Part shown: in pieces, positions 17,584 to 57,855 of the stretch
Layout of the letters: each line of letters opens with the position of its first letter
Numbering within the stretch: the stretch's first letter is position 1
The notes under the pieces: model-generated
What the model saw: the letters and a program-made list of their open reading frames with translations, nothing else
What the model was told of the DNA's origin: nothing
The model's database searches: none
DNA from: Bacteroidales bacterium
GTDB taxonomy: Bacteria; Bacteroidota; Bacteroidia; Bacteroidales; VadinHA17
Assembly (NCBI GenBank): GCA_050013475.1
Contig: JBEKFE010000006.1
Coordinates: 30,892-94,891, forward strand
DNA length: 64,000 nt
Direction: 5' to 3'
Position numbers and translations under genes: made by a program

Positions 17584-19644
17584 TTATTTTTCTGAACTCT
17601 TCTCGTTGATCTTTTTCAGGTAATTGTAAACTTCTATCTGTGAATGTACAGGCTCCTTGCCTTTTACAACAAACTCATTCGACATCATCTGGTCTATCCT
17701 GCGGGCTTTGACATTGTCGCTCCACTGGATCTCGAAAAGTTTCTTAAGCTCGCTTCTTATTGTTTTGTCGAAGATGGGACAGGTTACCTCTACCCGATGA
17801 TCAAGGTTCCTTGTCATCAGGTCGGCCGATGATATAAAATATTCCTCATCACCGCCATTGCAGAATATCATAAGTCTTGCATGTTCAAGATACCTGTCGA
17901 CAATTCCGATAGCCTTGATATTCTCGCTGAATCCTTTTATTCCGGGTACGAGAGAGATCATTCCCCTGACAATCAGCCGGATGTTCACTCCGGCATTACT
18001 TGCTTCGTAGAGGTAGTTAATAATTTCACTATCGGTGAGATTATTAAGCTTCAGGTAGATAAATGCTTTCTTGCCTGCCTTCGCATTTTCTATCTCGTTC
18101 TCAATAAGCAGGGTTATCTTATTCCTTAGTGCAAAAGGGGAGAGTACCAGGTGGTAATAATTGTCCTTTCTGTAGTTCATACTGAAGAAATTGAATGCCT
18201 TGTAGACCTCATTCGTGATCTTTTTATTGGTGGTAAAAAGAAGAAAGTCTGTATATATCCTTGCAGTATCTTCATTGAAGTTGCCAGTCCCCACCACTGC
18301 ATATCGCTGAGACGTATCATCCTTTAAACGGGTAATAAGGCATAGTTTTGAGTGAACTTTTAAACCGGGTACTCCGTAAATTACCTTCACTCCCTCTTCA
18401 AGCAACCTGTTACCCCAGTTAATATTCGCCTCTTCGTCAAATCGGGCCTGAAGCTCAACAACAGTTGTCACATCCTTTCCGTTCCTGACTGCATTAAGAA
18501 GGGCGTTTATCACGCTTGAGTTTCTTGCAAGCCTGTAAAGTGTTATCTGTATAGTTGTTACATAAGGATCTATCGAGGCTTCCCTGAGGAGATCAAGGAA
18601 ATGGTCAAATGGATGATAGGGGAGGTTAAGCATAATATCCCTCTTCTTTATTGCTGACAGGATGCTCTTCCCTGGCTGAATATCGCGGTGCTGGACAGGA
18701 ATTATGGGTTCAAAATAGAATTTTTTCCTTCCAAGGTTGGGGAAGTTCATAAAGTCCTTTGAATTGTGATACCTGTCGCTCGGAATGATAACATCATCAG
18801 GTCCGAAATTGAGCTTCTTCGTGATAATTGAAAGCAGTTCTTCAGGCATCTTCCTGTCGTGAACAAACCTCACAGGTGTTCCATGTTTTCTCTGCTGCAG
18901 GCTTCTTGAAAGCTTGTCGATATAGCTTTCGGAGATGTCGTCGGCTATCTCCAGTTCAGCATCCTTGGTCAGTTTAATGGAATATGCGGCAAGCTCGTCA
19001 AAATCAAATATAAAAAATACCTCCTTCAGACCGTACCTTATAATATCGTCAAGATAAATGACATATTTCTCATCATCCCTATCCGGAAGGACCACAAATC
19101 GGGGCAGTACATTTGTAGGGATCTCGAGCAGGGAAAATCTCTTTTTCTGCCCGTCCTTTTTGGAAAGTATAACGGCCAGGAAGATCGCATCATCCGTAAG
19201 ATTAGGAAGTTCAGAATCCTTTTCAATCAGGAAAGGCATCAGGCGCGTCCTGACCTCCAGATGGAAATACTTCCGGACAAATTCGGCCTGTTCCTCATCC
19301 AGCTGTTTCTCATTTATCAGATGGATCTTATGGTTATCCAGTTCCTGGAGAAGGCCTGTGTATATCTTTTCGAATTTCTCGTTCTGGGTAAGAACGATCT
19401 CCTGGATCTTTTTCAATGTCGGTTTTGGGCTGTACCCGAGTACATATTTTGATTTGGTGCCAAACAGCGAAAGTCTTTTCAGTGTCGCTACTCTGACACG
19501 GAAATATTCATCAAGGTTGTTGGAATATATCCCAAGGAATTTAAACCGCTCGAGAAGAGGTACATTCTTGTTCTCTGCCTCCTGTAACACTCTCTCATTG
19601 AATGAAAGCCAGCTGATCTCTTTAGGTATGAATGTTTTGCTCAT
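17584..19644 (-). CDS. ppk1: Polyphosphate kinase 1
   Basis: EISWLSFNERVLQEA, NLDEYFRVRVA, ELQARFDEEANI, LKVHSK, SADLMTRNLDHRVE. Confidence 0.98.
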   Translation of the reverse strand: MSKTFIPKEISWLSFNERVLQEAENKNVPLLERFKFLGIYSNNLDEYFRVRVATLKRLSLFGTKSKYVLGYSPKPTLKKIQEIVLTQNEKFEKIYTGLLQELDNHKIHLINEKQLDEEQAEFVRKYFHLEVRTRLMPFLIEKDSELPNLTDDAIFLAVILSKKDGQKKRFSLLEIPTNVLPRFVVLPDRDDEKYVIYLDDIIRYGLKEVFFIFDFDELAAYSIKLTKDAELEIADDISESYIDKLSRSLQQRKHGTPVRFVHDRKMPEELLSIITKKLNFGPDDVIIPSDRYHNSKDFMNFPNLGRKKFYFEPIIPVQHRDIQPGKSILSAIKKRDIMLNLPYHPFDHFLDLLREASIDPYVTTIQITLYRLARNSSVINALLNAVRNGKDVTTVVELQARFDEEANINWGNRLLEEGVKVIYGVPGLKVHSKLCLITRLKDDTSQRYAVVGTGNFNEDTARIYTDFLLFTTNKKITNEVYKAFNFFSMNYRKDNYYHLVLSPFALRNKITLLIENEIENAKAGKKAFIYLKLNNLTDSEIINYLYEASNAGVNIRLIVRGMISLVPGIKGFSENIKAIGIVDRYLEHARLMIFCNGGDEEYFISSADLMTRNLDHRVEVTCPIFDKTIRSELKKLFEIQWSDNVKARRIDQMMSNEFVVKGKEPVHSQIEVYNYLKKINEKSSEK

Positions 19645-20138
19645 AGTATTCTCTTTGGTTCATATGAAATTTCCGGGGTCCCGCTCGCAGGTTTGAGATC
19701 CGACCATATCATTATATTGAACGAGAGACAGACAATGCCGCTTTTGGCAATAGGCCCGACAGGCTCCCTTGAGTACCATATAGCAATATTACTGAATGAT
19801 GGGTTATGCCCGAAAAGTGTAATGGTTTCTGTATCCTCACCTCTCTTTTTCAGTATCTGGAACAGTGTCTCCTGGTTGAACCTTGAATAGATGAGGCTGT
19901 CAAGGATGATCTTCTCAGGCTTTATGCCATACTCCTGAGCGAAGATCATGGCTGTCTCTATTGCCCTGAACGCCGGACTTGAGACAAGTGTACCCGGATC
20001 TGTAATTTTATCCTTAAGTCTTCTTGCCATCTGCCTTGTGATGTTCTTGCCTTTCGATGTCAGGGACCTTTCGAAATCAGGAATACCATCGCCTCCTTCT
20101 TCAGCCTGGCCATGGCGCATCAATATGATCCTTTTCAT
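19641..20138 (-). CDS. sixA: Phosphohistidine phosphatase SixA family
   Basis: LMRHGQAE, SSPAFRAIETA, FGHNP. Confidence 0.9.
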   Translation of the reverse strand: MKRIILMRHGQAEEGGDGIPDFERSLTSKGKNITRQMARRLKDKITDPGTLVSSPAFRAIETAMIFAQEYGIKPEKIILDSLIYSRFNQETLFQILKKRGEDTETITLFGHNPSFSNIAIWYSREPVGPIAKSGIVCLSFNIMIWSDLKPASGTPEISYEPKRIL

Positions 20139-20191: not shown

Positions 20192-21232
20192 TCAGACGCC
20201 GAAGCTGGTTCCCATATCTCTGGCCTGTTTTACCATAGGATCGCCCGGATCAACAAGTCGTGTTTTACCGGCAACTTCACTCAAGGGAATGGAATTTATT
20301 CCGCAGTCGAAATGAGCTACCATCCTGCCATAATTCATATCGGCTATCATATTGGCTGCAGTTGAGCCGAACCTTGAAGCCAGGATCCTGTCCATGGGCG
20401 AGGGAGAACCTCCCCTCTGAAGATAGCCAAGAACCGTCTCCCTGGTCTCAAGGCCTGTCATTTCATTTATTCTCCTGGCAATATAACGGCCCGGTGATTC
20501 TTTTTTTGATGGGATATCAACTCCTTCCGCCACAACCACGATCGAATAAGGTTTGTTTTCTTCGGCCCTGGCCATAAGATATTCAGAAATTATATCCTCA
20601 TTAAAAGGTATCTCCGGAATCAGGATGACATCACCGCCACCCGCAATACCTGAATAGAGGGCAAGCCATCCCGCGTTATGACCCATTAGTTCAATTACCA
20701 TGATCCTTTTGTGCGAGTTAGCGGTGGAGTGAAGCCTGTCAATTGCTTCGGCAGCTATGTTTACTGCAGAATCGAATCCGAATGTGACATCTGTTCCCCA
20801 CACGTCGTTATCGATTGTTTTTGGAATACCGACCACATTAAGCCCTTCCTGCGAGAGAAGATATGCTGTTTTTTGTGTCCCGTTTCCGCCTATGCAAACA
20901 AGGCAATCCAATCCCATCTGCTCGTAATGTTCCTTTATAAGTACAGGCTTGCTGAGTTCCTTTTTGCCCTTGCTGTTACCCTTGAATGGCTTTTCACGGG
21001 AGGTTCCAAGGATCGTTCCTCCCAGGGTAAGAATACCTGAAAGCTTGTTTTCGGTCAGTTCGGAATACTCCTTGTTTATCATTCCGGTAAAGCCATCGCT
21101 TATCCCTATTACCTCCATGCCATATTTTACAATGGCTGTTTTACCGACACCTCGTATGGCGGCATTTATGCCCGGGCAATCCCCTCCTGCGGTCAGGATC
21201 CCTATTCTCTGTGGTTTTTTGTTTTTACCCAT
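20192..21232 (-). CDS. pfkA: 6-phosphofructokinase (PfkA family, mixed-substrate group III-like)
   Basis: TAGGDCPGINA, IGGNGT, IPKTIDND, ELMGHNAGW, LGYLQRGG. Confidence 0.93.
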   Translation of the reverse strand: MGKNKKPQRIGILTAGGDCPGINAAIRGVGKTAIVKYGMEVIGISDGFTGMINKEYSELTENKLSGILTLGGTILGTSREKPFKGNSKGKKELSKPVLIKEHYEQMGLDCLVCIGGNGTQKTAYLLSQEGLNVVGIPKTIDNDVWGTDVTFGFDSAVNIAAEAIDRLHSTANSHKRIMVIELMGHNAGWLALYSGIAGGGDVILIPEIPFNEDIISEYLMARAEENKPYSIVVVAEGVDIPSKKESPGRYIARRINEMTGLETRETVLGYLQRGGSPSPMDRILASRFGSTAANMIADMNYGRMVAHFDCGINSIPLSEVAGKTRLVDPGDPMVKQARDMGTSFGV

Positions 21233-21310: not shown

Positions 21311-21469
21311 TACTATTTTTTGTCATCCAAATTTATCAAAATATGAACAGATCAGCAACATTAATTGAACCCGATCCGGGTTATACAAATGTATGGCAAT
21401 GAACTCTATTTATTGTTACAAATATGCTAAAAAGCGAAACCCTGACAGGAATTGACTATTTTTACATTC

Positions 21470-22351
21470 ATGGAACTTGATTATGTAAAACTAAAGGAGG
21501 TAAAACCGGTAATTTCCGGGTATATCTCTGAGGCGCTTTTCCTGATGAAGAGAGCGCCTGTTCCTGACGATGCTGCAGTTCACGACATCAGGGTGCTGAT
21601 GAAAAAGTCAAGAGCCGTAATGAAACTTCTTGCTACTCACCTCGATCCGGGATTGTTTCAAAAGGAGTATATTACATTCAGGGATATCGGGAGGGCGCTC
21701 TGTTCCTTCCGGGAGACATCAGTGCACAGAAAGACACTCAAGGGATTAAAGAAGATGCATCGTGAGCTCTTTTCAAGGCTCACGGAGAATGAAAAAATTG
21801 GAACACTGCTGAAAAAAAATGATATTCATGCAGAGATCCCTGCCGGGGTCAGGGCCTCTCTGGATATTACCATCGATATGCTCAGCAGGGCTGCTTTCAG
21901 GATACGATTCCTTTCGCTTGATAATCTCGATCCCAGGGTTCTGCTGCAGGAGCTGGAGAAAAGCTATAAGATCGTTTGCCAGGATTATGTAGATTGCAGG
22001 AACACTCTAAAGCCCGCGCATCTGCATCAGCTCCGTAAAAGGCTTAAGGATTTTCTTTACCAGCTTTATTTCTTCCGTCCTTTGAATCCTGTTATAATTA
22101 AATCGCTTGAAAAAAAGATTGACGGACTATCCCAGGATCTTGGAGGGTATAACGACCTCACACAGCTTCTTGAAGCGATCGATTATAAAATTTCCGAACA
22201 GGGTAAATCTCCGGCTATGGATGAACTTATGATCATAATAAGGAACAAGCAGGATGTATACCTTTCAAAAATATGGCCGGTGGCATATAAAATATTCTGC
22301 CCCGGCCAGCAACTCCTTAATGTGCTTGGATTCAAGCTGCTGATGATATAG
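21470..22351 (+). CDS. CHAD-domain (polyphosphate-binding) protein
   Basis: AVHDIRVLMKKSRA and HLHQLRKRLKDFLYQ..LGGYNDL CHAD motifs; likely start MELDYV. Confidence 0.88.
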   Translation: MELDYVKLKEVKPVISGYISEALFLMKRAPVPDDAAVHDIRVLMKKSRAVMKLLATHLDPGLFQKEYITFRDIGRALCSFRETSVHRKTLKGLKKMHRELFSRLTENEKIGTLLKKNDIHAEIPAGVRASLDITIDMLSRAAFRIRFLSLDNLDPRVLLQELEKSYKIVCQDYVDCRNTLKPAHLHQLRKRLKDFLYQLYFFRPLNPVIIKSLEKKIDGLSQDLGGYNDLTQLLEAIDYKISEQGKSPAMDELMIIIRNKQDVYLSKIWPVAYKIFCPGQQLLNVLGFKLLMI

Positions 22352-22378: not shown

Positions 22379-22882
22379 TCAGGTAAAGATGATCTGGGAA
22401 CCTTCGCCTCCTGCGAGGGCATAGAATTCACCAACTGTAAGAACACCAGAAACATGTTCGCAAAGATCTTCCTTTTTGAATTTGAACATATCCATAGCCA
22501 GCTTGCAGGCATAGATTTTACCGCCACCGGCAGTGATAAGATCCAGAAATTCACTTACTGGAGGAATATCCAGTTTGTCCATTCCGCTCTTCATCATTCC
22601 TGAAGTAAAAGCTTCCATACCCGGTATGATCCCGAGGAGGGTTGGCATCCGCATGCCACCCGGAAGCCTTAGTGCAGGGTTTCCTACAACGGCAGTGTGC
22701 AGCTTATCCATCCTGCCTTTCACAATTGCATCAAGTCCGAAGAATGTGAAGAAGATATTTGCTTCAATACCTTCCATTACAGCGCCGTTACCCAGGACAA
22801 GTGTTGCATAAACATCCTCAATTGCACCTTTAGCGCATATGAGATTGACTTTCTTTATTGGATAATTCTGTGAATCAGTCAT
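22379..22882 (-). CDS. DsrE2-like (DsrE/F/H family) sulfurtransferase
   Basis: IFFTFFGL and KIYACKLAMDMF (conserved Cys) of the DrsE_2 family. Confidence 0.85.
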   Translation of the reverse strand: MTDSQNYPIKKVNLICAKGAIEDVYATLVLGNGAVMEGIEANIFFTFFGLDAIVKGRMDKLHTAVVGNPALRLPGGMRMPTLLGIIPGMEAFTSGMMKSGMDKLDIPPVSEFLDLITAGGGKIYACKLAMDMFKFKKEDLCEHVSGVLTVGEFYALAGGEGSQIIFT

Positions 22883-22899: not shown

Positions 22900-23211
22900 T
22901 TACACGCAGCTGGCCGGTTTGGGAATACCTCCAATTTTTGTCGCCTTCTTGAGAGGAGCCCCAGGGAATAGCTGATAAAAGGTTTTGACATCAATGATCC
23001 CGGAATGATTAATACTCCTGATCGATAACGCATCTCCGCTGTTGTGCCTGTTGCGAAGGTATTCGATGATGGCAAAGTGCTGATCGGTCAGAACAATGCC
23101 CTCTTCCTTTGCAATTTCAGCGGCGATCTCCCTGGTCCACTGGGAAGGATTTGTAAAATAACCCTCCTCGTTAACATCTACAATTATTCCTGCATAAGTT
23201 TTCTGTGCCAT
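22900..23211 (-). CDS. tusE: TusE/DsrC-family sulfur relay protein
   Basis: Likely start MAQKTYAG; VNEEGYF..W, LTDQHFAIIEYLR, LFPGAPLKKATKIGGIPKPASCV (only the penultimate CysA). Confidence 0.88.
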   Translation of the reverse strand: MAQKTYAGIIVDVNEEGYFTNPSQWTREIAAEIAKEEGIVLTDQHFAIIEYLRNRHNSGDALSIRSINHSGIIDVKTFYQLFPGAPLKKATKIGGIPKPASCV

Positions 23212-23240
23212 TTTATAAAGTTTTAGAAATGTATTATTTG

Positions 23241-24473
23241 TTAAGAAATCATTTTTCCACTCATACTCATTTTTGTTGAAATCGGTAATTTTCTGGCTTT
23301 CAGAAGAATATTCCAATATACCCATTTGAACAGGAGTTTCCCCAAATGGTTGATCCTGCTCTCTTTCAGTAGGCTGAATGGCCCGATCACGGAATAGGGA
23401 AACACTCCTGGCAAAGGCTCGGTGTCATAGTTAAAGTCGATAAGCACTGCCTTATCGTATCCGGTCTCGATATAGCAGTTTGAATGGCCATCGGATATTC
23501 TGGTCAAAGGTTTGCCAGCTATATAACTCAGTAAATTTTCTGTAAGAATTTCAGCCTGGAAATGAGCTACGGCACCAGCCTTGGAGGCAGGGTAATTACC
23601 AGCATCGCCGATAGCGAAAATATTCTGATGCAACGTTGATTGCAGCGTAAATTTATCAGCCCGGACGAAGCCAAATTCATCCCCGAGCCCGCTCCTTATA
23701 ATTGCAGGATCTCCACCGTGTAAGGGAATACTGATCAGACAATCGAATGGAACCTCGCGTCCTCCGAAATCCCTGATCACTCTGGCTTCATTATCGACCT
23801 CGCCGAGGAAGAAATCAGATACAAGTGAAATGTTCTTTTTCTCAAGAAGGGCCCCAAGCATTTTCGATGAACGGGGCTTTGTAAATGCACCTGACAAAGG
23901 AGTTACATATGAGATCTTCACTTTATCCCTTATGCCCTTTCCTGTGAAGAATTCATCGGCCAGAAAAGCAAATTCAAGAGGTGCAACGGGACATTTTATT
24001 GGATTATCCACTATGTTTATAACAAGGTTGCCACCTTCCCAGGTTTTAAAGAAATCAGCCAGGGCCAAAGCACCCTCAATGGTATAGAAATCAAAGATCT
24101 TACTGTACCAGAGCTTGCCTTTGAGACCCGGAGTCTCCTCAGGAATAATTCTTGTACCAGTGGCAACGACAAGCAGATCGTATTCCAGAACCTCGCCTTT
24201 CAGTAACTTAACAGAATTATTGGCAGCATCGATCTTTTCAATTATATCATAAATTACACTGATACCACCCGATAATGTATCTGAGGTCGGTTTGATAATG
24301 TCCTCCTTCCTGTAATATCCAAATGGGATAAAAAGGAAGCCGGGCTGATAATAGTGAATCTTACTCTGATCTACAATTGTGATATTCCACTCTTTACGAG
24401 GAAGCTTCTTCCGCATTTTATTGGCCATGATGGTACCACCTGTACCAGCGCCAAGAATTAAAAGTTTTTTCAT
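23241..24473 (-). CDS. sqr: Sulfide:quinone oxidoreductase-like flavoprotein
   Basis: GAGTGG FAD loop, HYYQPG, KCPVAPLEF, FAIGDA, DGHSNCYIETG (two catalytic-type Cys), amphipathic C-terminus. Confidence 0.85.
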   Translation of the reverse strand: MKKLLILGAGTGGTIMANKMRKKLPRKEWNITIVDQSKIHYYQPGFLFIPFGYYRKEDIIKPTSDTLSGGISVIYDIIEKIDAANNSVKLLKGEVLEYDLLVVATGTRIIPEETPGLKGKLWYSKIFDFYTIEGALALADFFKTWEGGNLVINIVDNPIKCPVAPLEFAFLADEFFTGKGIRDKVKISYVTPLSGAFTKPRSSKMLGALLEKKNISLVSDFFLGEVDNEARVIRDFGGREVPFDCLISIPLHGGDPAIIRSGLGDEFGFVRADKFTLQSTLHQNIFAIGDAGNYPASKAGAVAHFQAEILTENLLSYIAGKPLTRISDGHSNCYIETGYDKAVLIDFNYDTEPLPGVFPYSVIGPFSLLKESRINHLGKLLFKWVYWNILLKARKLPISTKMSMSGKMIS

Positions 24474-27148: not shown

Positions 27149-27997
27149 ATGAATATTTTAAGCCATCTCAGTTCAGGCGCATCAAAGTCATTTCGATCTT
27201 GGAAATGGATACTTGTAATCTGGTTTGCAGTTTTGGTTCTGGTCTCAATCCTTGGACTAACGCTGAGGGGAGAGCTGAACGCGATTTTCGGCAAAAGCAT
27301 GATCACCGAAAAGCTTGCCGACGGGACAATTGTTGATGTTATTGCAAACGCCGGAACAGGTATGAGGATACTTATTTCATCTTTTACAACAGGGTTTTTT
27401 CTGATCACCTTCCTGGGAATCCTTGTTATTGTTTTCTTTAATGGCGGTTTGTTTACTGTATTAAGGACCAGTGAAGCTAAAACTGGTTCAACAGAATTCT
27501 TTGGAGGAGCCGCCTCCAACTTCTGGCCTTTCCTGGTGATCTGGCTGCTCATTGCATTGATGATAGCGTTTGCAGCATTTCTTCTTGTTGGTCTGCCCGT
27601 TGTGATAAGGGCCGGATCGAACTCAGCAGGATCACCCGTTATTCTGAAATTAACTTCACTGGTATTACTGCTTATTATGCCTGTTTTTCTGCTGGTGGCA
27701 GATTATGCCAGAGCCTGGCAGGTATCAAATGAAAGAAAGAATGCGTTCAAAGCCATCGGAAAGGGATTTGCAACGACATTCCGTCATTTCTTCTTATCAT
27801 GGTCTGCAATGTTCCTTATGATCGTCATCCAGGTTATTTACCTGTTTCTGGTCTTCAGGTTTACCGGCAGCCTTAAACCGGTGTCAGCAGGTGGTATCTT
27901 TCTACTCTTTATCCTTATTCAGGTATTGTTCATCATAAAGCTTTTTCTCAGGACCTGGAGATATGGAATCGTAACTTCTTTGTACGAAAAGCCGTAA
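27149..27997 (+). CDS. Multi-pass membrane hypothetical protein, probably co-transcribed with the M1 peptidase
   Basis: About six hydrophobic segments; 10 bp gap from the peptidase gene. Confidence 0.75.
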   Translation: MNILSHLSSGASKSFRSWKWILVIWFAVLVLVSILGLTLRGELNAIFGKSMITEKLADGTIVDVIANAGTGMRILISSFTTGFFLITFLGILVIVFFNGGLFTVLRTSEAKTGSTEFFGGAASNFWPFLVIWLLIALMIAFAAFLLVGLPVVIRAGSNSAGSPVILKLTSLVLLLIMPVFLLVADYARAWQVSNERKNAFKAIGKGFATTFRHFFLSWSAMFLMIVIQVIYLFLVFRFTGSLKPVSAGGIFLLFILIQVLFIIKLFLRTWRYGIVTSLYEKP

Positions 27998-28056: not shown

Positions 28057-28102
28057 TTACCCTGATCAGGATTAGGGTAATTTTGTGTTAATAAGTTCAC
28101 AT
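28057..28102 (+). promoter_or_regulatory. Promoter of the hdr-like operon: 24-bp palindrome, -7 element and Rex-type operator
   Basis: TTACCCTGAT-CAGG-ATTAGGGTAA (28057-28080); TAATTTTG (28078-28085); GTGTTAA-TAAG-TTCACAT (28085-28102). Confidence 0.6.
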
Positions 28103-28125: not shown

Positions 28126-28839
28126 ATGGAAAGTCTTTATAATCAGCTTTTAAAGGATATAAGGTTTGTCGAGGGACTCAATGCCTGCATGAACTGTGGC
28201 GTTTGTACAGCGATCTGTCCTGCTGCCGAATTTTATAATTATGATCCAAGGAAAATTGTCGATGAGGTACAGGAGCGGAATGAAGAGACCATAGAGGAAC
28301 TTCTTAAATCAGATACCATCTGGTACTGCGGCGAATGCATGTCGTGCAAGACCAGGTGCCCGCGTGGGAATGCTCCGGGACTTATCATAATGGCACTGCG
28401 GGCACTTTCGCAGGAACTTGGATATTTTGTAGAATCGGAAAAGGGGAGGCAGCAGCTTGCAATAAAAAGAACCGTGGGAGAGTGGATAATTAACCATGGA
28501 TACTGTCTTTATCTTGAGGGGGTTGGAACATCATTGCATCCCGAACAGGGGCCGGTTTGGGATTGGATACAGGAGAACTGGGTTGAACTTTTTAAACGAC
28601 TGGGTGCAAATTATAAAGGCGATGGGCCCGGGATATTGAGGAAAATCCCCGAAGATGCAATGGAAGAGATAAGGGAGATATTCAGGGTTACAGGCGGAAT
28701 GAAAAGGTTCGAGAAGATTGAAGAATTCTCAAGAATAAAAGCAGCGGAGATGTCTTTAAAACTGGATGATGGGATTGACAATGATTATTTCCGATATATT
28801 TATAAAACAGATAATCAGTCCCATACAAGGGACAAATAA
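28126..28839 (+). CDS. hdrC: HdrC-like 2x[4Fe-4S] protein with C-terminal extension (sHdrC1-like)
   Basis: CMNCGVCTAICP and WYCGECMSCKTRCP; extension containing HPEQGPVW. Confidence 0.88.
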   Translation: MESLYNQLLKDIRFVEGLNACMNCGVCTAICPAAEFYNYDPRKIVDEVQERNEETIEELLKSDTIWYCGECMSCKTRCPRGNAPGLIIMALRALSQELGYFVESEKGRQQLAIKRTVGEWIINHGYCLYLEGVGTSLHPEQGPVWDWIQENWVELFKRLGANYKGDGPGILRKIPEDAMEEIREIFRVTGGMKRFEKIEEFSRIKAAEMSLKLDDGIDNDYFRYIYKTDNQSHTRDK

Positions 28840-28848
28840 TATTTCGTA

Positions 28849-29910
28849 ATGAAGCTTGAAGGAAAAAAGGAAATCTGGAAGGATTACCAGAAGGAGATAG
28901 CAAATGATAAATATTTTTATGTCAGAAGCTGCGTGAGGCAGAATTTCTTCCCAGGCTCTGAAACTGCATTTCTCAGGATCATGACTGAGGTCTTAAAGAA
29001 GGATATCTATGAACATCCATGCCATACTACCTGTACCGGTATCGGGTACCATGGAGATATTGTTCCCGTTGAAACAACTATGACTGTTGTAGCAAGGCAA
29101 TTTGCCCTTATGAATGAATCGGGTTATGAAAACCTTCTGCCTTCATGCATCACATCATTCGGTTTATATACGGAAATACTAGATACGTGGCATCATTTCC
29201 CTGAAGTTGAGGAGAAGGTAAGGGAAAACCTGAGAAAAGCAACGGGAAGGGAATTTAAGATCCCTAAAAACCTTGCTCATGCAAGTGATGTCATATATAA
29301 GTTCAGGAAAGAGATTGCTGCAAAAGCAAAATATAAGCTGATAAACAAGAACACTGGTGAGCCCCTTAAAGTGGTTGACCACATAGGCTGTCATTATGCC
29401 AAGATGTTCCCATCAAAGGGCGTTGGAGGTGCAGAATATCCCTATGTGCTTGCTGGGATGGTAGAGGAATGGGGAGGAGAGGTTATCGACTATCCCGAAA
29501 GAAGACACTGCTGCGGATTTGGATTCAGGCAGTACCTCGTTCAGGCCAACAGGGGCTTCTCTGTTGCATGCTCCAAAGCAAAGTTCGAGTCGATGAAACC
29601 TTACAAGCCCGATATGATCATTACAAACTGCCCCGGTTGTCCAATGTTTCTCGACAGATGGCAGTATGTGATAAAGGAAATGGAGGGTGTTGCCTACGGT
29701 AAGAATAACGAAGGGATACCGGTCTTCACATACGAGGAGGTTGCAGGGCTTGTACTCGGATACGACCCCTGGGATCTTGGCTTGCAGATGCATCAGACAG
29801 ACTGTGAACCTGTGCTGGAAAAAATGGGCATCGAATATTCACCTGAGGACAAGTTTAAATTAAAAAAGAGTCAGTTCTCTTCCAATCCTCATATTGTTGT
29901 AAATGGCTAA
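28849..29910 (+). CDS. hdrB: HdrB-like CCG-domain protein (sHdrB1-like)
   Basis: Degenerate first CCG (RSC..TTCTG..SCITSFG), intact second CCG (HIGCHY..CCGFGFR..NCPGC). Confidence 0.88.
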   Translation: MKLEGKKEIWKDYQKEIANDKYFYVRSCVRQNFFPGSETAFLRIMTEVLKKDIYEHPCHTTCTGIGYHGDIVPVETTMTVVARQFALMNESGYENLLPSCITSFGLYTEILDTWHHFPEVEEKVRENLRKATGREFKIPKNLAHASDVIYKFRKEIAAKAKYKLINKNTGEPLKVVDHIGCHYAKMFPSKGVGGAEYPYVLAGMVEEWGGEVIDYPERRHCCGFGFRQYLVQANRGFSVACSKAKFESMKPYKPDMIITNCPGCPMFLDRWQYVIKEMEGVAYGKNNEGIPVFTYEEVAGLVLGYDPWDLGLQMHQTDCEPVLEKMGIEYSPEDKFKLKKSQFSSNPHIVVNG

Positions 29911-30952
29911 AGAGATGGATAAGCATGTAGTGGTCATAGGAGGGGGGGTTGCAGGACTTGAGGCAGCCGGTCAGCTGGCAAATGCCGGGATAGAGGTCAG
30001 CCTCATTGAGAAGGAATCTTTAACAGGAGGTCACCTGAATGACTGGTACAGGTTATTTCCCGACAGGAGAGACAGCTCTGAAGTGAAAGCTTATTTTGAT
30101 GAACTCATTTCTCGTGGCGGCATATCGGTTCAGACAAATACCACGATTGAGGATTTTCATCATCATAAAAACCATTTTGACATCACAACAAGTGATGGTA
30201 AAAGCCTGAAAGCTGATGCTGTAATAGTTTCAACAGGGTTCGACCTTTTTAAAAGCTCTAAGAAAGAAGAATATGGCTACGGGATTTATGATAATGTAAT
30301 AACATCCGCTGATCTTGAGACTCTTTTTCGTAAAAATGCGATCAGAACACATAACGGTGCAGAACCGAAGAGGATCGGTATCGTCCATTGCGTCGGTTCA
30401 AGGGATGAAAAGATCGGGAACCTTTATTGTTCAAAGCTATGCTGCGTAACTGCAGTCAAGCAGGCAATCGAGATAAGGGAGCATCTTCCGGAATGCCAGG
30501 TATTCTGTTTTTATATGGACATGAGGATGGGCGGGGCTTATTATGAAGAATTATACAGAGAGGCTCAGGAAAAATGGGGGGTTAATTTTGTAAGAGGCAA
30601 AGTCTCTGAAGCAGGCGAGAATATTGATGGAAAGATAGTTGTAAAGGTTGAGGACACGCTTGCTGGCCGACCTCTCAAAATGGAGGTAGACATACTTGTC
30701 CTGATGGCAGGAATGGAGATCTCTGAAGGAGGTAAATCAATTGCAGAAAAAACCGGGCTTCTTAGAGGCGAGAACAGGTTCTTTTCACCGGCAGATCATC
30801 ATTACGGGAATAACAGGAGCAATATTGAGGGTATTTTTTATGCAGGTACCTGCACAGCCCCGATGAATATTACCGAGACAATTTCCCACGCGCGTGCTGC
30901 GGTAACGGAAGTCGTAAATTATCTTGAAAGGGGCAGCAGGAAAAATGGATAA
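29903..30952 (+). CDS. hdrA: Short HdrA-like flavoprotein (FAD/TrxR domain + one [4Fe-4S])
   Basis: GGGVAG, EYGYG..NVITS, HCVGSRD..YCSKLCC, FYMDMR; no N-terminal or ferredoxin domains. Confidence 0.9.
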   Translation: MAKEMDKHVVVIGGGVAGLEAAGQLANAGIEVSLIEKESLTGGHLNDWYRLFPDRRDSSEVKAYFDELISRGGISVQTNTTIEDFHHHKNHFDITTSDGKSLKADAVIVSTGFDLFKSSKKEEYGYGIYDNVITSADLETLFRKNAIRTHNGAEPKRIGIVHCVGSRDEKIGNLYCSKLCCVTAVKQAIEIREHLPECQVFCFYMDMRMGGAYYEELYREAQEKWGVNFVRGKVSEAGENIDGKIVVKVEDTLAGRPLKMEVDILVLMAGMEISEGGKSIAEKTGLLRGENRFFSPADHHYGNNRSNIEGIFYAGTCTAPMNITETISHARAAVTEVVNYLERGSRKNG

Positions 30953-31289
30953 GTTTGGGTATACCATATCAAAACCAAGGATCATAGACTATGATCTGAA
31001 TGACCGAAGTATTGCAGGCTATATACTGGAACGGGAGAATAGTTTCAGAATATGCATAGAATGCGGAGGTTGCTCAGCAACCTGTACAACAGGTAAGTTT
31101 ACATCATTCAGCCTGAGGGAGCTTCACATTCTTATGAAAAGAGGTGAAAATGAAAAGCCGCGTGAAAAAATCAGGGAGTGTATGCTATGCGGCAAATGCA
31201 CTCTGGTTTGTCCACGGGGCGTGAATACACGAAATGTTATTTTCCTTGCCAGGGAGGCATTCAGAAAACTTGACAACCATGCGCTTTGA
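30945..31289 (+). CDS. Small HdrC-like 2x[4Fe-4S] protein
   Basis: CIECGGCSATC and CMLCGKCTLVCP; ATG overlaps the hdrA stop. Confidence 0.85.
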   Translation: MDKFGYTISKPRIIDYDLNDRSIAGYILERENSFRICIECGGCSATCTTGKFTSFSLRELHILMKRGENEKPREKIRECMLCGKCTLVCPRGVNTRNVIFLAREAFRKLDNHAL

Positions 31290-33183
31290 TCCATTTGTAA
31301 TACCATTTAATATCGGACTATACTTTATAATCATATATAGTGTGGTCAGATGTGTCAGGTGGTTTACAGAACTTTCACGGGCAGATAAATTAAGGTTGCA
31401 GAGAGGGTTTTTCGGACGATCATTCAGCGCCAGTATAAAAGAGGTATTCCTTGAAAGTCTCATTCACAGGAAAATACTTAAGACCAATCCGAGGCTTGGT
31501 TATATGCATATGAGCCTTGCATTCGGGTGGTTCCTCCTTATCCTGTTCGGTACCATTGAAGCGGATGTTTTCGGACTCAGGCATCTCAACCCGCCATCCC
31601 ATGCTATATTTTTCAGATTCTTCAATCCCGACCTTGGAACTTCAGGCTTCGGAGCAGCATATTCATTCCTGATGGACCTGATACTTGCCTTTATCCTGTC
31701 CGGACTTTTCCTTGCAATTCTGAAAAGGTTCACTCCGAAGGCGGTTGGTATGAAGAAGACTACCAGGCTGAAGATCAGGGATAAGGTGGCTCTTACGGCT
31801 TTATGGCTTATCTTCCCGAGCAGGCTTATGGCAGAGAGTCTGACCTGCGGAGCCCACGGCACAGGAAGCTTTCTTACAGGGACACTGGGCTCATTCTTCG
31901 GCTCATTCCTGCCGGCACATCAGCTTGCCTATCCATTCTGGTGGTTATATTCACTCTCCCTGGGTACTTTTTTCATTCTTCTGCCGGTAACAAGATATAT
32001 GCATATTCCTACTGAAATATTTCTGATCTTCATGAGGAATTCGGGCATCCGCACGGGAGACAAAACAGGGTCATTTTCGGAAGTTGAAGTTCACTCCTGC
32101 TCATCCTGCGGGATATGCATAGACAAATGTCAGCTAAATTACAGTGCAGGTATTACCCATATACAATCTGCCTACCTGATGAAGGCAATAAGGAATGATG
32201 GTGATGCATGCGAAATAGCCCGTAACTGCCTGATGTGCGGGAGATGCGAGGAGTCATGTCCTGTCGGCTTAGAAATGTCGGCTATTCGAATGATACAAAG
32301 AAGGGAAGGAGAGAGGAATGGAGAATTCAGGAACATATGGAAAGGATATTATCGTGTCAGACAAGCGCCGATTACGGTAAAACACGCCGAAACTTCCCCG
32401 TACGCATTTCTCCCGGAATGTAAAACAGGGAAGGCTGATGTTATATATTTTGCAGGTTGCATGACGCATCTTACACCTGCGATAAAAAATTCAATGCTAA
32501 GAATATTCAAGGCTGCAAATGAGAAGTTCCTTTTTATGGACAATGAAGGAGGGGTATGCTGCGGCAGGCCGTTGATGCTTGCCGGGCAGGAGAAGGAGGC
32601 AAGGGAGCTGATTAACTTCAATTCAGACATAATCTGGAAATCAGGGGCTCAAACGCTTGTAACTTCATGTCCGATCTGCTATAAGGTATTTCGTGAAAGC
32701 TACTACCTCGATGTTGAAGTGCTTCACCATACGCAGTACATCAAGAGACTTATAGATGAAAAGACGGTAAGGATAAACTATTCGAGAAAGAAAATAGTAT
32801 ATCACGATCCATGCGAACTTGGAAGAGGTTCCGGAATTTATGAAGAACCCCGTAAAATTCTGGAACATGTTGCAGTACTTCAAAAGACAGGCCATGAAGG
32901 AGCAGATTCATTATGCTGCGGGGGAAGCCTTGCAAACCTGAAGATCGATCAGAAAGGAAGGAGAAGGATAGCTTCGGATGTGGTTGCAGTTCTTACCTCG
33001 GGAAAGCCCGATATTCTTGCAACTGCATGTCCGATGTGTAAAAAGATACTTTCAGCCATGACAGACACCAGGGTAGCTGATATAGCTGAGATAGTTGCAG
33101 AAGAGATATCCGATATCCAAAAGAAGAAGAGCATAACATCCGGACTGAATATCAGGGAACTGGTTGATATTTCTCTTCAGTGA
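31279..33183 (+). CDS. Membrane-bound HdrE/HdrD-like fusion: NarI-type TM domain + 2x[4Fe-4S] + two CCG domains
   Basis: About 5-6 TM helices with YMH motifs; CSSCGICIDKC and CLMCGRCEESCP; FAGC..CCG..SCPIC and HDPC..CCGG..ACPMC; likely start MRFDPF. Confidence 0.88.
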   Translation: MRFDPFVIPFNIGLYFIIIYSVVRCVRWFTELSRADKLRLQRGFFGRSFSASIKEVFLESLIHRKILKTNPRLGYMHMSLAFGWFLLILFGTIEADVFGLRHLNPPSHAIFFRFFNPDLGTSGFGAAYSFLMDLILAFILSGLFLAILKRFTPKAVGMKKTTRLKIRDKVALTALWLIFPSRLMAESLTCGAHGTGSFLTGTLGSFFGSFLPAHQLAYPFWWLYSLSLGTFFILLPVTRYMHIPTEIFLIFMRNSGIRTGDKTGSFSEVEVHSCSSCGICIDKCQLNYSAGITHIQSAYLMKAIRNDGDACEIARNCLMCGRCEESCPVGLEMSAIRMIQRREGERNGEFRNIWKGYYRVRQAPITVKHAETSPYAFLPECKTGKADVIYFAGCMTHLTPAIKNSMLRIFKAANEKFLFMDNEGGVCCGRPLMLAGQEKEARELINFNSDIIWKSGAQTLVTSCPICYKVFRESYYLDVEVLHHTQYIKRLIDEKTVRINYSRKKIVYHDPCELGRGSGIYEEPRKILEHVAVLQKTGHEGADSLCCGGSLANLKIDQKGRRRIASDVVAVLTSGKPDILATACPMCKKILSAMTDTRVADIAEIVAEEISDIQKKKSITSGLNIRELVDISLQ

Positions 33184-49776: not shown

Positions 49777-51522
49777 TCATACTGCGAATAATCCATCTAC
49801 CTGTGCAAGTATCTGCTGGTCGGTGAAATGCCGGCCCTTTATGGCTGATGACGGACATGCTGCCACGCATACACCACAGCTCTTGCAGAGAGCACTTATT
49901 ATATGACTGTGTCTTTTTTCTTCGTCGAATTCAATTGCACTATAGGGGCAAAGCTTGTTACAGAACCGGCATCCGGAACATTGTTCCTCATTTACTTCTG
50001 AATAAACTGCATCGACCTCGATCTTCCCTTTTGCGATTCTTGCGAGTATACGAGCAGCGGCTGCCCTTGCCTGAGCAACAGAATCAGGTATATCCTTTGG
50101 AGCAACACATGTCCCGGCAATAAATATTCCGTCAGTTGTAGTCGCAACAGGTTCAAGCTTCGGATGACTTTCGATGAACCATCCGTCTTTGTCCTGGCTG
50201 ATATTTACAAGTCGGGCAATTTCATTTGAGTCTTCCCGGGCTTCCATTCCTACCATAAGGATCACCATATCTGCCGGGATTTCAATATGTTCACCTGAAA
50301 GCTTTTCATTGACTTCTATAAGCATCTCACAGTCATCTTTCGGACCTGCTTTATGGATCACCGGTCTGTCACCTTTTTCGTACATCAGGAATAGTGTTTT
50401 AGCTTCCGATGATTTGCGATAGAAATCTTCATGCCCTTTCCCGAAAGCATGCATATCTATATAGATATCTGAAATATAGCAATCCGGGTTTGCAGACTTG
50501 ATCTCAGAGGCATATTTTAAAGCGGTCATGCAGCAGACCCGCGAGCAATAGGTGTGAAATTCCTTTGACCGGCTTCCCACGCAGTGGATAATAGCCACAT
50601 ATTTGGGCACTTTTCCTTCCTTTGTTTCAATGCTTCCGGCACGTATCATCTTTTCCAGATCGAAAGAAGTAATGACATTTGGTAGTTTTCCGTATCCATA
50701 GTGGACTATCCTGGATGCATCAAATTCCTTATATCCCGTACACACTACAACATTTCCGATCTTCACATTGACCTTCCTCCCCGGATAATTGAATTTATAG
50801 TCATAGGACTGAATTGTTGCCTTAAAATTGCCTATAAAGCCCGTGACCTCTGTCACTTTTGATTCAAGATAAACAATCACTTTTCTGTTATCCTTGATAC
50901 GCGTTATCTTTTCAGTGATCAGATCCCGGGCGGAATAGAGATAAGGTGCCGTAAGATCAACACGTGCAAGGTTCCCGCCAAGATGGTTATCTTTTTCAAC
51001 CAGATAAACAGTATAGCCTGAATCAGCAAGTTCAAGAGCTGCTGTCATACCGGTAATGCCCCCTCCGATAACAAGTACATTAGGGCACATATCAACCGAC
51101 ATGGTCTCGAGTGACTCATGGAGCTCAACACGGCAAACGGCTGCGCAGACAAGAGCTTTGGCTTTTTCAGTTGCTTCAACCGGATCAGTATGTACCCAGC
51201 TGCATTGTTCGCGTATATTGGCCATTTCGAAAAGATACTGATTCAGGCCAGCTGATCTCAGTGCACTACGAAAAGTCCGCTCATGCATATTTGGGCTGCA
51301 GGCAGCGACAACCACGCGATCAAGCTTATGCTCCTTTATATCCTGGGTGATCATCTCCTGTCCGGGATTGGAGCACATGTATTTATAGCTTTTTGCAAGA
51401 ACAACGTTTGGCAGATTGGAGGCGAATCCGGCAACTGCTTCCACATCGACTGCTTTTGCTATATTAGTTCCGCAACAGCAGATATACACTCCTATTCTGG
51501 GTGATTTTTCTTTGTCAGCCAT
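49777..51522 (-). CDS. hdrA: HdrA paralog with N-terminal Fe-S domain and C-terminal ferredoxin, no inserted ferredoxin (HdrA'')
   Basis: YICCCGTNI..YMCS..AACSP..REQCSWVH; GGGITG; HCVGSR..YCSRVCC; CSGCRFCNKLCP and CKSCGVCVAACP. Confidence 0.92.
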   Translation of the reverse strand: MADKEKSPRIGVYICCCGTNIAKAVDVEAVAGFASNLPNVVLAKSYKYMCSNPGQEMITQDIKEHKLDRVVVAACSPNMHERTFRSALRSAGLNQYLFEMANIREQCSWVHTDPVEATEKAKALVCAAVCRVELHESLETMSVDMCPNVLVIGGGITGMTAALELADSGYTVYLVEKDNHLGGNLARVDLTAPYLYSARDLITEKITRIKDNRKVIVYLESKVTEVTGFIGNFKATIQSYDYKFNYPGRKVNVKIGNVVVCTGYKEFDASRIVHYGYGKLPNVITSFDLEKMIRAGSIETKEGKVPKYVAIIHCVGSRSKEFHTYCSRVCCMTALKYASEIKSANPDCYISDIYIDMHAFGKGHEDFYRKSSEAKTLFLMYEKGDRPVIHKAGPKDDCEMLIEVNEKLSGEHIEIPADMVILMVGMEAREDSNEIARLVNISQDKDGWFIESHPKLEPVATTTDGIFIAGTCVAPKDIPDSVAQARAAAARILARIAKGKIEVDAVYSEVNEEQCSGCRFCNKLCPYSAIEFDEEKRHSHIISALCKSCGVCVAACPSSAIKGRHFTDQQILAQVDGLFAV

Positions 51523-51526
51523 TTCA

Positions 51527-52678: not shown

Positions 52679-52688
52679 GGTAAGATTT

Positions 52689-54491: not shown

Positions 54492-54542
54492 AATTATCTA
54501 TGATTGATTATCTTATAAATCATCTTTTACGGTCGAAGAATA

Positions 54543-56977: not shown

Positions 56978-56994
56978 GGCACAAAAATTAATAT

Positions 56995-57420
56995 CTATGT
57001 TAAGACATTCAGCGTCTCTTTTATTTTGGATTGTCCCAATTCTGTTATAGTTTCTGTAAAACTATCGATCAACTCAGCGAATTGCTTACCCTCACTGGCG
57101 CTTATCCATTCAAGTTTAAGTCTTTCTGTCTCAATACCCATCTGGGTGATGTATTTCTGCAACAACTCGTACCTCCGGAGACACCTGTAATTGCCCTCCT
57201 GATAATGACAGTCACCCGGGTGACAGCCACAAAGCAGCACACCATCGGCACCATTGGTAAATGCCTTGAGTACAAATGTAGGTTCTATCCGGCCTGAGCA
57301 CATAACCTTGACAATCCTCACATTGGGTTTATACACCATCCGTGATGTACCTGCCAGATCTGCACCGGTGTACGAGCACCATTTGCAGAGAAATGCAATG
57401 ATCCGGGGTTTAAATTCCAT
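56995..57420 (-). CDS. mvhD: Hydrogenase [2Fe-2S] adaptor subunit (MvhD)
   Basis: FLCKWCSY, VMCSGR, GCHPGDCHY, WISASEG. Confidence 0.96.
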   Translation of the reverse strand: MEFKPRIIAFLCKWCSYTGADLAGTSRMVYKPNVRIVKVMCSGRIEPTFVLKAFTNGADGVLLCGCHPGDCHYQEGNYRCLRRYELLQKYITQMGIETERLKLEWISASEGKQFAELIDSFTETITELGQSKIKETLNVLT

Positions 57421-57526
57421 TTTACTGACTCATTTATTTAATGAAAAACATCAACAATAATGACTTTTGTCATAGATCAAAAATTCAATAAAAAGTTAGC
57501 AAACAATTTTTGAAAATATTATGATT

Positions 57527-57837: not shown

Positions 57838-57855
57838 AAATGAAACTATTCACAA
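57838..57855. promoter_or_regulatory. Rex-type operator
   Basis: AAATGAA-ACTA-TTCACAA (11/14). Confidence 0.6.

Follow-up and report, generated by a model that had tools for sequence, protein, structure and literature searches.

A widespread Hdr-like operon of the Bacteroidales: an apparent sister lineage of sHdr and a candidate quinone-linked source of sulfite

What would a relative of the sulfur-oxidizing sHdr system be doing in an anaerobe? The question is raised by a five-gene operon encoding heterodisulfide reductase (Hdr)-like proteins within a 64,000-nucleotide stretch of DNA from a Bacteroidales bacterium (assembly GCA_050013475.1, contig JBEKFE010000006.1), which in its entirety is referred to here as the window. 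Until now, sHdr has stood for a cytoplasmic, lipoate-dependent sulfur oxidation of lithotrophs that occurs in two described gene arrangements. Judging from its B and A subunits, the Bacteroidales system is a sister lineage of sHdr and not a member of it, and it is widespread among fermentative and anaerobically respiring Bacteroidales. We consider it quite possible, if a little short of probable, that the cluster encodes an oxidase that turns sulfane sulfur into sulfite, linked to menaquinone and independent of lipoate; the substrate, product, direction, and stoichiometry of the complex are those that we infer from its genes and their neighbors. The five genes are as follows, with ED being the label used here for the fifth protein, a membrane protein with iron-sulfur and CCG domains (aa, amino acids).

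28126-28839, plus strand: C1, HdrC-like protein with a long C-terminal extension (237 aa; 8 cluster cysteines)
28849-29910, plus strand: B1, HdrB-like protein, putative catalytic subunit (353 aa)
29903-30952, plus strand: A, short HdrA-like flavoprotein with an FAD fold (349 aa; [4Fe-4S] motif C163, C176, C180, C181)
30945-31289, plus strand: C2, small ferredoxin-like protein (114 aa from the likely ATG at 30945; the open reading frame opens with TTG at 30924)
31279-33183, plus strand: ED, EtfD/EMO-like membrane protein (634 aa from the likely ATG at 31279; the open reading frame opens with ATG at 31234 and from there encodes 649 aa)

The first-pass annotation of this DNA had placed five translationally coupled genes at 28126-33183, and all of them can be read there on the plus strand together with every motif it quoted. 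C1 and B1 are separated by a 9-nt gap, while B1/A and A/C2 each overlap by 8 nt (the latter from ATG 30945) and C2/ED by 11 nt (from ATG 31279); such tight junctions fit the proposed coupling. Two CxxCxxCxxxC motifs are found in each of C1, C2, and ED, HPEQGPVW is present in C1, and all 8 cysteines of C2 are invariant among 29 sequences. In B1, where the motifs read HTTCTG, SCITSFG, CCGFGFRQYLVQ, and NCPGC, the first CCG domain is degenerate: C28, C62, and C100 are kept and two of the five cysteines are lost, with T61 occupying the position of the first cysteine of the CC pair and S103 that of the last. The second CCG domain is complete (C181, C221, C222, C261, and C264), just as had been noted from its NCPGC segment, and ED carries two complete CCG sets (C..CC..CxxC twice). 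Pfam recognizes a Fer4 dicluster in C1, C2, and ED (C1 matches Fer4_8 at E 3.9e-11), CCG in B1, CCG twice in ED, and a pyridine-nucleotide-disulfide-oxidoreductase fold in A. The best NCBIfam names are HdrC for C1, HdrB for B1, and HdrA2/HdrA for A. Their scores are far under the equivalog cut-offs (C1 with HdrC, 89 bits against 350; B1 with HdrB, 136 against 450; A, 260 against 1100 for its best match among HdrA2/HdrA and 215 against 1400 for HdrA), and none of the proteins is an ordinary Hdr subunit.

It is evident that these are real genes rather than chance open reading frames, since B1 has close relatives and the gene block recurs. Among 3816 candidates, 2691 relatives of B1 were found at E <= 0.001; the 120 matches listed of these 2691 share 74-86% identity with B1, and the named ones come from metagenome-assembled genomes (MAGs) of Bacteroidota, Bacteroidales, or Bacteroidia. 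Within the window's genus, 23 of 24 further species carry B1, and of 16 other families sampled, 7 have it. In a sample of 301 Bacteroidales genomes drawn evenly, it occurs in 111 genomes (110 of the 292 of high quality) and in 82 of 199 genera. A separate scan of one genome per species yielded 80 loci, of which 60 are from Bacteroidota and the other 20 archaeal. The order C1, B1, A, ED, with C2 lying between the last two, is kept in 54 of the Bacteroidota loci, and the remaining 6 are incomplete, being cut by contig ends. The carriers among the 60 include Butyricimonas synergistica DSM 23225, B. muris, Gabonibacter massiliensis GM7, and Alistipes spp., as well as a Paludibacter sp. and members of the Rikenellaceae and Lentimicrobiaceae. 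Across Bacteroidales families, identity amounts to 59-76% for B1, 43-62% for A, and 37-67% for ED; B1 is thus the best conserved subunit, which fits a catalytic role. Two B1 paralogues are encoded in many Bacteroidales genomes (e.g. G004, G031, G064, G095, G192, and G297), one approximately 73-85% and the other approximately 63-68% identical to that of the window.

The first-pass annotation had proposed kinship with sHdr rather than with canonical Hdr, and phylogenetic trees of both the B and A subunits bear this out. As references, the class of a Methanomassiliicoccales locus was searched with protein A and the neighborhoods of the best short matches were taken, after which synteny and Pfam served to verify these as sHdr clusters (C1-B1-A-H-C2-B2-GCV_H-DsrE-lipoate ligase). 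These clusters encode a C1 of approximately 259 aa, a B1 of 415-432 aa, and an A of 341-369 aa, then a 236-aa protein without Pfam match at the position of sHdrH, followed by C2, B2, a GCV_H protein (LbpA), DsrE, and a lipoate-protein ligase, with DsrE2-like genes upstream. Seven further Thermoplasmata loci with short or odd-length HdrA (L111-L117) had been considered as type II sHdr and were rejected; they carry type I-like sHdr genes instead, and their GC-rich DNA makes open reading frame calls unreliable. In the B-subunit tree (50 rows, IQ-TREE, LG+C20), the Bacteroidales B1 together with a cyanobacterial B1 and two other representatives form one clade (100/99), which is sister to the sHdrB1 clade (100/99), the two being joined at 99/97. 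The next outgroup (100/97) consists of HdrB from clusters of Methanocellaceae, Methanoperedenaceae, and Methanomassiliicoccales, and canonical HdrB-like sequences and sHdrB2 group farther off. In the A-subunit tree (46 rows), a 100/99 branch sets Bacteroidales plus cyanobacterial A (100/98) and sHdrA (100/100) apart from all long HdrA and Qmo-like proteins, including the three paralogues of this genome. Since they are sister to and not nested in the sHdr sequences, both B1 and A fall outside the sHdrB1 and sHdrA clades and are not members of sHdr proper.

Pairwise comparisons tell a similar story. Identity to Thermoplasmata sHdr is 29% for B1, 34-37% for A, and 26% for C1. Protein A aligns end to end (residues 7-337) with the 349-aa sHdrA of H. 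denitrificans (6tjr_A, E 5.1e-60), keeping the four cluster cysteines at an identity of approximately 34% (a hand count from the alignment), whereas its alignment with methanogen HdrA chains of approximately 650 residues covers only segments of the flavin domain. The motifs of Thermoplasmata sHdrB1 are TSCTAWNYHG, HCGTSYG, DCCGFGFRH, and DTGC, such that a degenerate first CCG (S/T-C-T, C-x-T-S-F/Y-G) and CCGxGFR are common to Bacteroidales B1 and sHdrB1. The segments attributed to sHdrB1 in the first-pass annotation are borne out as well: the synteny-verified Thermoplasmata proteins contain CGTSYG and CCGFGFRH, with DTGC standing where B1 has NCPGC.

Two further components of classical sHdr are missing, as had been observed for the window: no GCV_H (LbpA-type) gene lies within its 64 kb, and no sHdrH homologue was found by tblastn (E <= 1e-4) in the entire genome. 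We also searched the neighbors of all 60 Bacteroidota loci within 8 kb of the cluster (open reading frames of at least 70 aa, blastp E <= 1e-5), and an LbpA-like, lipoate-ligase, or sHdrH-like reading frame was present at 0 of the 60. The proposed independence from lipoate is suggested by these surroundings of the cluster; for the genome as a whole, it is qualified by GCV_H matches outside the window on contigs C4 (a GcvH gene), C12, C1, and C6 (at 163214) and by two lipoate-ligase (LplA-type) genes on contig C7. Of the TusA and DsrE types of sulfur transferase that accompany sHdr, a TusA gene is located on contig C2.

In ED, a helical membrane domain of approximately 255 residues is combined with two complete CCG domains and two cubane [4Fe-4S] motifs. 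Among solved structures, a sequence search retrieved a single relative, M. smegmatis EtfD (9ojn, E 1.9e-18), and only for the C-terminal part. An AlphaFold2 model built from 30 orthologues (pLDDT 87, pTM 0.81) had the same EtfD as its top and only full-length Foldseek match (E 6.8e-21, TMq 0.63, TMt 0.55), while the other matches (LutA in second place, and HdrB) cover only the CCG part. In 55 ED orthologues, H63, H77, H242, R182, and R239 are invariant and so are all 18 cysteines, 8 of the cubane clusters and 10 of the CCG domains. The structure of EtfD is described as five transmembrane helices holding one heme b (ligands His78 and His241) beside a menaquinone site, with the CCG clusters, cubanes, and heme forming an electron wire to quinone (PMC13083937). 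Based upon the fold match, the invariant histidines and cysteines, and this wiring, ED is best described, from its model, as an EtfD/EMO-like quinone-reactive anchor. The anchor function had been anticipated in the first-pass annotation and is strengthened by these results, whereas its name for the protein, an HdrE/D fusion, fits less well, as residues 1-289 have no Pfam match even at E <= 10 and hence no detectable NarI/HdrE-type domain. Complex prediction placed C2 on the CCG domains of ED (residues 255-634) with a score of 0.87 compared to 0.01 for the best of 3 controls; among solved complexes, 58 of 80 reach this mark, as do 2 of 110 mismatched pairs. Agreement between the runs covers at least 95% of contacts, with a partner pLDDT of 79 or more, but because HdrB-HdrC complexes have already been solved, the result may reflect likeness to them instead of independent evidence. 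The CCG part of ED is accordingly predicted to be used like a B subunit. As for the quinone, this genome can make menaquinone via the futalosine route: futalosine-pathway genes and UbiA prenyltransferases are present, and for this reason the failure to find MenA in the genome was not counted against a quinone link.

If the operon is kin to sHdr, does its genomic context also speak of sulfur? In the window, three sulfur genes that had gone unnoticed in the first-pass annotation lie upstream on the opposite strand.

23241-24473, minus strand: type III sulfide:quinone reductase (SQR; NF049943, 607.7 bits, above the cut-off of 525)
22900-23214, minus strand: TusE/DsrC-family carrier with a single C-terminal cysteine (PF04358, E 2.9e-24; TIGR03342, 71 bits)
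22379-22882, minus strand: DsrE2-family sulfur transferase (PF13686, E 6.5e-25; NF047629, 94 bits, below the cut-off of 210)

The TusE-like protein ends in ...PASCV and probably starts at M38 of a reading frame opening at 23325. As it has no second cysteine approximately 10 residues upstream, it belongs to the TusE-like persulfide-carrier type and not to the two-cysteine DsrC type. The trio is located 2.5-4 kb upstream of the cluster in two species of the genus, lying only 2.5 kb from C1 in the second (L148), and SQR is a putative upstream source of sulfane sulfur, an association seen in this genus. When the flanking reading frames of the 60 loci were clustered, the sole recurrent neighbor was cysteate synthase, a pyridoxal phosphate (PLP) enzyme of 424-430 aa that scores 463 bits against TIGR03844 (cut-off 324.9). 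It is encoded directly 3' of ED in 13 of the 51 loci having at least 1.3 kb of downstream DNA, with stop/start overlap in some, and these enzymes share 52-100% mutual identity. The loci concerned belong to Rikenellaceae/Alistipes-like, Paludibacteraceae, and other lineages; the same six-gene operon ending in cysteate synthase is found in G169. There, a MarR/OhrR-family regulator gene stands immediately upstream of C1 (L147:5477-5926) and could encode a thiol-based sensor for the operon. Another locus has a different threonine-synthase-like PLP enzyme directly 3' of ED (L097:12356-13669), scoring 135 bits for cysteate synthase and 156 bits for threonine synthase, both below the cut-offs. Finally, in a genome from another family whose B1 is 85% identical (G046), the cluster is divergent from cysH across a 113-nt spacer, and cysH is followed by cysN and cysD. 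All three neighborhoods (cysteate synthase, cysH, and the SQR trio) concern the step between sulfane sulfur and sulfite, which is also the reaction assigned to sHdr. The first-pass annotation had pointed to persulfides or disulfides, and the neighbors suggest a more specific lead, namely sulfite.

The occurrence of these genes across the 301 Bacteroidales genomes was as follows.

B1 cluster: 111 of 301 genomes
Cysteate synthase: 77 of 301 genomes
DsrC family: 95 of 301 genomes
APS/PAPS reductase: 194 of 301 genomes
NIR_SIR: 23 of 301 genomes

With the DsrC family, the cluster is found together in 52 genomes, alone in 59, DsrC alone in 43, and neither in 147 (odds ratio 3.0); with APS reductase, the corresponding numbers are 77, 34, 117, and 73 (odds ratio 1.4). 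Among the 77 genomes encoding cysteate synthase, 14 of the 20 that lack APS/PAPS reductase (from ten families) carry the cluster, versus 22 of the 57 that have the reductase (odds ratio 3.7, uncorrected p 0.02). No match to APS reductase was found in Butyricimonas synergistica, Gabonibacter massiliensis, or Alistipes sp. CAG:831, all of which encode both the cluster and cysteate synthase, and the Paludibacter MAG encodes the cluster and APS reductase with no cysteate synthase above the cut-off. No single partner gene is obligatory for the cluster. Cysteate synthase was rejected as an obligate partner due to its absence from this genome and its weak co-occurrence (36/75/41/149), and DsrC/TusE because it is found in only 52 of 111 cluster genomes. 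Nor is there support for the idea that the cluster is the general missing sulfite reductase of Bacteroidales, as it is present in 66 of the 172 genomes that are positive for APS reductase and negative for NIR_SIR, which is about the background rate. Of these 172 genomes, 72 also lack both the cluster and cysteate synthase, and the set as a whole, 172 of 301 with APS reductase and no siroheme sulfite reductase, marks a gap in known sulfur assimilation. In the present genome, no NIR_SIR domain was found anywhere, and contig C6 carries, beyond the window at 108000-118100, the gene order cysH-cysD-cysN-(ABC ATPase-like)-(HypB/CobW-like GTPase)-nifS/iscS-(230-aa Fe-S protein)-cystathionine gamma-synthase-cysE-cysK.

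How might such a system work? In the mechanism we propose, the five proteins would form one membrane-bound Hdr-like complex built upon the sHdr plan, with a dimer of A as its core, by homology. One A would carry the catalytic arm C1-B1, with the noncubane site in B1, and the other would carry C2 docked on the CCG domains of ED. The latter would stand in place of soluble sHdrB2 and provide a link to menaquinone through its two cubanes and a b-type heme. Sulfane sulfur would arrive as a persulfide, in this genome generated by SQR and relayed by DsrE2 and the single-cysteine TusE, and B1 would then oxidize the persulfide sulfur to sulfite, passing four electrons along C1, A, C2, and ED to menaquinone. 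The reaction would involve neither sHdrH nor the lipoate-binding protein that classical sHdr employs; ED would replace both the type I branch of B2 and LbpA, which reduces lipoamide, and the type II branch of B3, ETF, and EMO. Where cysteate synthase is the sixth gene, the sulfite would feed cysteate and then sulfonolipid synthesis; in lineages lacking an adjacent cysteate synthase, sulfite formation may serve sulfide detoxification or energy conservation. It is the operon shared with a sulfite-consuming cysteate synthase that argues for sulfite as the product.

Several observations weigh against sulfite formation as just described. The association of the cluster with cysteate synthase is weak overall (36 genomes with both, 75 with the cluster only, 41 with the synthase only, and 149 with neither; odds ratio 1.7), and related genomes were counted as independent, which overstates significance and leaves all of the co-occurrence data suggestive only. 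In the genome from which the window comes (98.8% complete), no match to cysteate synthase was found, and therefore sulfonolipid supply cannot be the role of the cluster here. A DsrC/TusE-family gene accompanies the cluster in no more than 52 of its 111 genomes, and neither of the two other sampled species of the genus has one. Within 8 kb of the cluster, SQR, DsrC, DsrE2, cysH, and cysD/N were encoded at 0 of the 60 loci, a search that did not include TusA. Furthermore, LbpA is reported to be essential in classical sHdr (PMC6067878). The phylogenetic placement depends upon sHdr references from Thermoplasmata plus three sHdrB1-like representatives, with no proteobacterial or Aquificota sequences, and upon unrooted trees. 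Lastly, the cysH neighborhood and the presence of APS reductase without a siroheme sulfite reductase in this genome suit the reverse direction equally well.

That reverse direction would make the complex a menaquinol-dependent (or otherwise reduced) non-siroheme sulfite reductase supplying sulfane sulfur or sulfide for assimilation, which we regard as quite improbable. It would take the place of the missing sulfite reductase, and in its favor are the cysH-cysD-cysN...nifS...cysE-cysK operon of this genome (contig C6, 108-118 kb) in the absence of any NIR_SIR domain, the divergent cysH with adjoining cysN and cysD in G046, and the 172 of 301 genomes having APS reductase without NIR_SIR. Despite this, the cluster is not enriched in the latter (66 of 172 compared to 45 of the 129 others) and G046 itself encodes NIR_SIR proteins, while a sulfite reductase sharing an operon with a sulfite-consuming cysteate synthase would be self-defeating. 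By standard potentials, sulfite reduction by menaquinol is also slightly uphill, which counts against it as well. The sister family is in addition described as running oxidatively (PMC11094781).

Another explanation, which we hold to be unlikely, is a quinone-linked thiol/disulfide or polysulfide oxidoreductase that makes no sulfite and acts, like HdrDE and DsrMK, on a TusE/DsrC-like disulfide or persulfide or on a small disulfide or polysulfide. CCG domains with noncubane clusters form the disulfide-reducing sites of HdrB, HdrD, and DsrK, and both full CCG sets are kept in ED; in EtfD, by comparison, the CCG clusters are described as carrying electrons along a wire, with no role as a disulfide site (PMC13083937). 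DsrC-family genes are enriched approximately three-fold with the cluster (52 of 111 versus 43 of 190) and are its neighbors in this genus, yet 59 of 111 cluster genomes have none, and the TusE-like protein of the window, with its one cysteine, could not form the intramolecular di- or trisulfide reduced by DsrK. Such an activity would also leave the links to the cysteate synthase operon and to cysH unexplained, and B1 is sister to sHdrB1 instead of canonical HdrB. Least of all would we expect an electron-transfer module unconnected to sulfur, e.g. for the oxidation of hydroxy acids or other organic substrates in the manner of the CCG proteins LutA, GlcF, GlpC, and TfrB, to which we give very little chance. 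The best NCBIfam matches of ED are indeed TfrB (111 bits), LdhH, and GlpC, all below their cut-offs, LutA is its second fold match for the CCG part only, and most loci have no sulfur gene within 8 kb. Against this stand the B1 and A trees, which both group with sHdr, the fact that every recurrent or notable neighbor found is a sulfur gene, and the lack of any dehydrogenase subunit for an organic substrate in the operon. Both a pure disulfide/polysulfide reductase and a role outside sulfur metabolism are less well supported than sulfite formation.

The remaining features of the window lie around the operon or in a second redox cluster on the minus strand at 49777-58395.

17584-19644, minus strand: polyphosphate kinase 1
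19641-20138, minus strand: SixA-like phosphohistidine phosphatase
20192-21232, minus strand: phosphofructokinase
21452-22351, plus strand: CHAD-domain protein
27149-27997, plus strand: 282-aa multi-pass membrane protein, just upstream of C1 beyond the hairpin
28057-28080, plus strand: terminator-like hairpin separating C1 from the membrane-protein gene before it; may mark the upstream boundary of the operon
49777-51522, minus strand: HdrA-like protein (581 aa)
51527-52729, minus strand: QmoC-like membrane protein (194 bits, below the cut-off of 300)
52689-54491, minus strand: HdrA-like protein (600 aa)
54543-56006 and 56003-56977, minus strand: [NiFe]-hydrogenase large and small subunits, respectively, Vhu/Mvh type
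56995-57420, minus strand: MvhD-like protein
57925-58395, minus strand: hydrogenase maturation protease

The hairpin is a weak mark, as 5 terminator-like sites were found in the region and 4.2 are expected by chance, and a promoter scan, which is uninformative for Bacteroidota, gave nothing above chance. The 282-aa membrane protein has no Pfam or NCBIfam match and, beyond this genome, is seen ahead of the cluster in close relatives alone (L057, L103, and G254). Downstream of ED, the window continues with an unrelated 180-aa gene and then purL. Near the DsrE2/TusE/SQR trio, the phosphofructokinase and CHAD neighbors recur in the second species of the genus. The second redox cluster looks, from its gene content, as if a hydrogenase of the Mvh type were coupled to a quinone module resembling Qmo. 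Elsewhere in the genome, contig C3 carries at 247560-250643 a more canonical Hdr set of HdrC, HdrB, and an HdrA of 667-670 aa, with its HdrB being 33-34% identical to sHdrB2 and the cyanobacterial B2.

In the literature searched, we found no account of this cluster, of an sHdr-like system in Bacteroidota, or of a link between Hdr proteins and cysteate synthase; supplementary tables, such as those on sHdr distribution in PMC11094781, may bear upon this. A survey of six-gene sHdr clusters assigned 334 of 406 annotated clusters to Proteobacteria MAGs and names no Bacteroidota among them (PMC12345210). According to PMC11094781, published criteria call for either H and B2 or H, B3, and etfAB, and the Bacteroidales form would consequently be excluded by them. 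We can also envision, albeit with more doubt than for the sulfite-forming activity itself, a broader scenario in which gut and other anaerobic Bacteroidales possess a third, lipoate-independent type of sHdr with an EtfD-like arm in place of B2, which would convert sulfide-derived sulfane sulfur to sulfite without O2 and, in hosts lacking APS reductase, would be the sulfite source for cysteate synthase; this appears rather doubtful at present. If true, it would show how the sHdr catalytic module works without lipoate, provide anaerobes with a route from sulfide to sulfite, and identify a sulfite source for gut sulfonolipid producers that have no sulfate reduction genes. For the sulfonolipids of Alistipes and Odoribacter relatives, connections to host immunity and inflammatory bowel disease are emerging (PMC11525784). 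As several hosts are in culture, this reading is open to ordinary genetics and biochemistry.

Among known systems, the operon is close to type I sHdr (shdrC1B1AHC2B2 plus LbpA). The two share the order C1-B1-A...C2 followed by a CCG protein, a short A of approximately 350 aa with FAD and one [4Fe-4S] cluster, and a B1 combining a degenerate first CCG with CCGxGFR. The published type I criterion is the syntenic core shdrC1-B1-A-H-C2-B2 (PMC11094781); of this core, the window has C1, B1, A, and C2 in order, with no H and no soluble B2. Distinct from type I, the Bacteroidales cluster has no sHdrH and no adjoining lbpA or lipoate-ligase genes (0 of 60 loci), A and C2 overlap by 8 nt with no gene between them, and the 634-aa membrane protein ED is encoded instead of soluble B2. 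Its B1 is also shorter (353 aa versus 415-432 aa) and keeps the final CxxC where Thermoplasmata have DTGC, and its hosts are anaerobic Bacteroidales. Type II systems (shdrC1B1AHB3-etfAB-emo) encode EMO together with EtfAB, and EMO is proposed to pass electrons to menaquinone (PMC11094781). ED is of the same EtfD/EMO membrane Fe-S type, but the Bacteroidales operon, compared here by published description, lacks etfAB, H, and the B3 fusion, and ED directly follows C2, the two genes overlapping by 11 nt, with C2 itself as its predicted binding partner. Similarly, ED and EtfD/EMO (9ojn) have in common an N-terminal helical membrane domain, two cubanes, two CCG domains, and a histidine pair at equivalent numbering (77/242 in ED and 78/241 in EtfD). 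Despite these likenesses, they share only approximately 16% identity, ED lacks the disordered C-terminal tail of approximately 260 residues, and it resides in an Hdr-like operon without etfAB, where its predicted partner is C2.

EtfD is in turn reported to be homologous to HdrDE (PMC13083937). Both HdrDE and DsrMK join a membrane b-heme subunit to a protein with two [4Fe-4S] clusters and CCG domains, connecting the quinone or phenazine pool to thiol/disulfide chemistry, as ED might. However, they consist of two separate subunits and have no A/B1/C1 module, whereas ED is a single polypeptide without a detected NarI-type Pfam domain that scores 63 bits against the DsrK equivalog (cut-off 400). 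Canonical HdrABC is marked by a long HdrA (approximately 650-800 aa) with extra ferredoxin-type domains and by an HdrB with two complete CCG domains, and A and B1 differ from it on both counts. Another comparison is offered by the archaeal HdrC-HdrB-HdrA clusters (L024-L043) of Methanocellaceae, Methanoperedenaceae, Syntrophoarchaeum, Methanomassiliicoccales, and Methanobacteriaceae, the HdrB of which shares the degenerate first CCG (S-T-C-x-G, C-P-T-S-Y-G). Unlike the Bacteroidales operon, they encode a long HdrA of 685-785 aa that branches with canonical HdrA, and neither a C2 nor a second CCG protein; in ANME-1 and Methanoliparum, a fused HdrCB of 466-541 aa is found.

Outside of Bacteroidota, the nearest named relative lies on a plasmid of Picosynechococcus sp. 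PCC 7003 (NZ_CP016476.1, 185219-190959; L023), in a cluster that carries generic annotation only. It encodes C1-B1-A-C2-B2 and then a flavoprotein of the SQR family, which scores 83 bits against type III SQR and so stays under the cut-off. Like the Bacteroidales operon, it has no H, its C1, B1, and A are 47.5%, 39%, and 46% identical, respectively, to their counterparts, the B1 motifs are the same, and both B1 and A belong to the same clade as those of Bacteroidales in the two trees. In contrast to that operon, its C2 has 203 aa, there is no membrane subunit, and a soluble B2 is kept, which is sister to sHdrB2 (100/97). As this cluster without H retains a soluble B2 sister to sHdrB2, the comparison suggests an ancestral, H-less C1B1A-C2B2 form of the system, in which B2 would later have been replaced by a membrane protein in the Bacteroidales.

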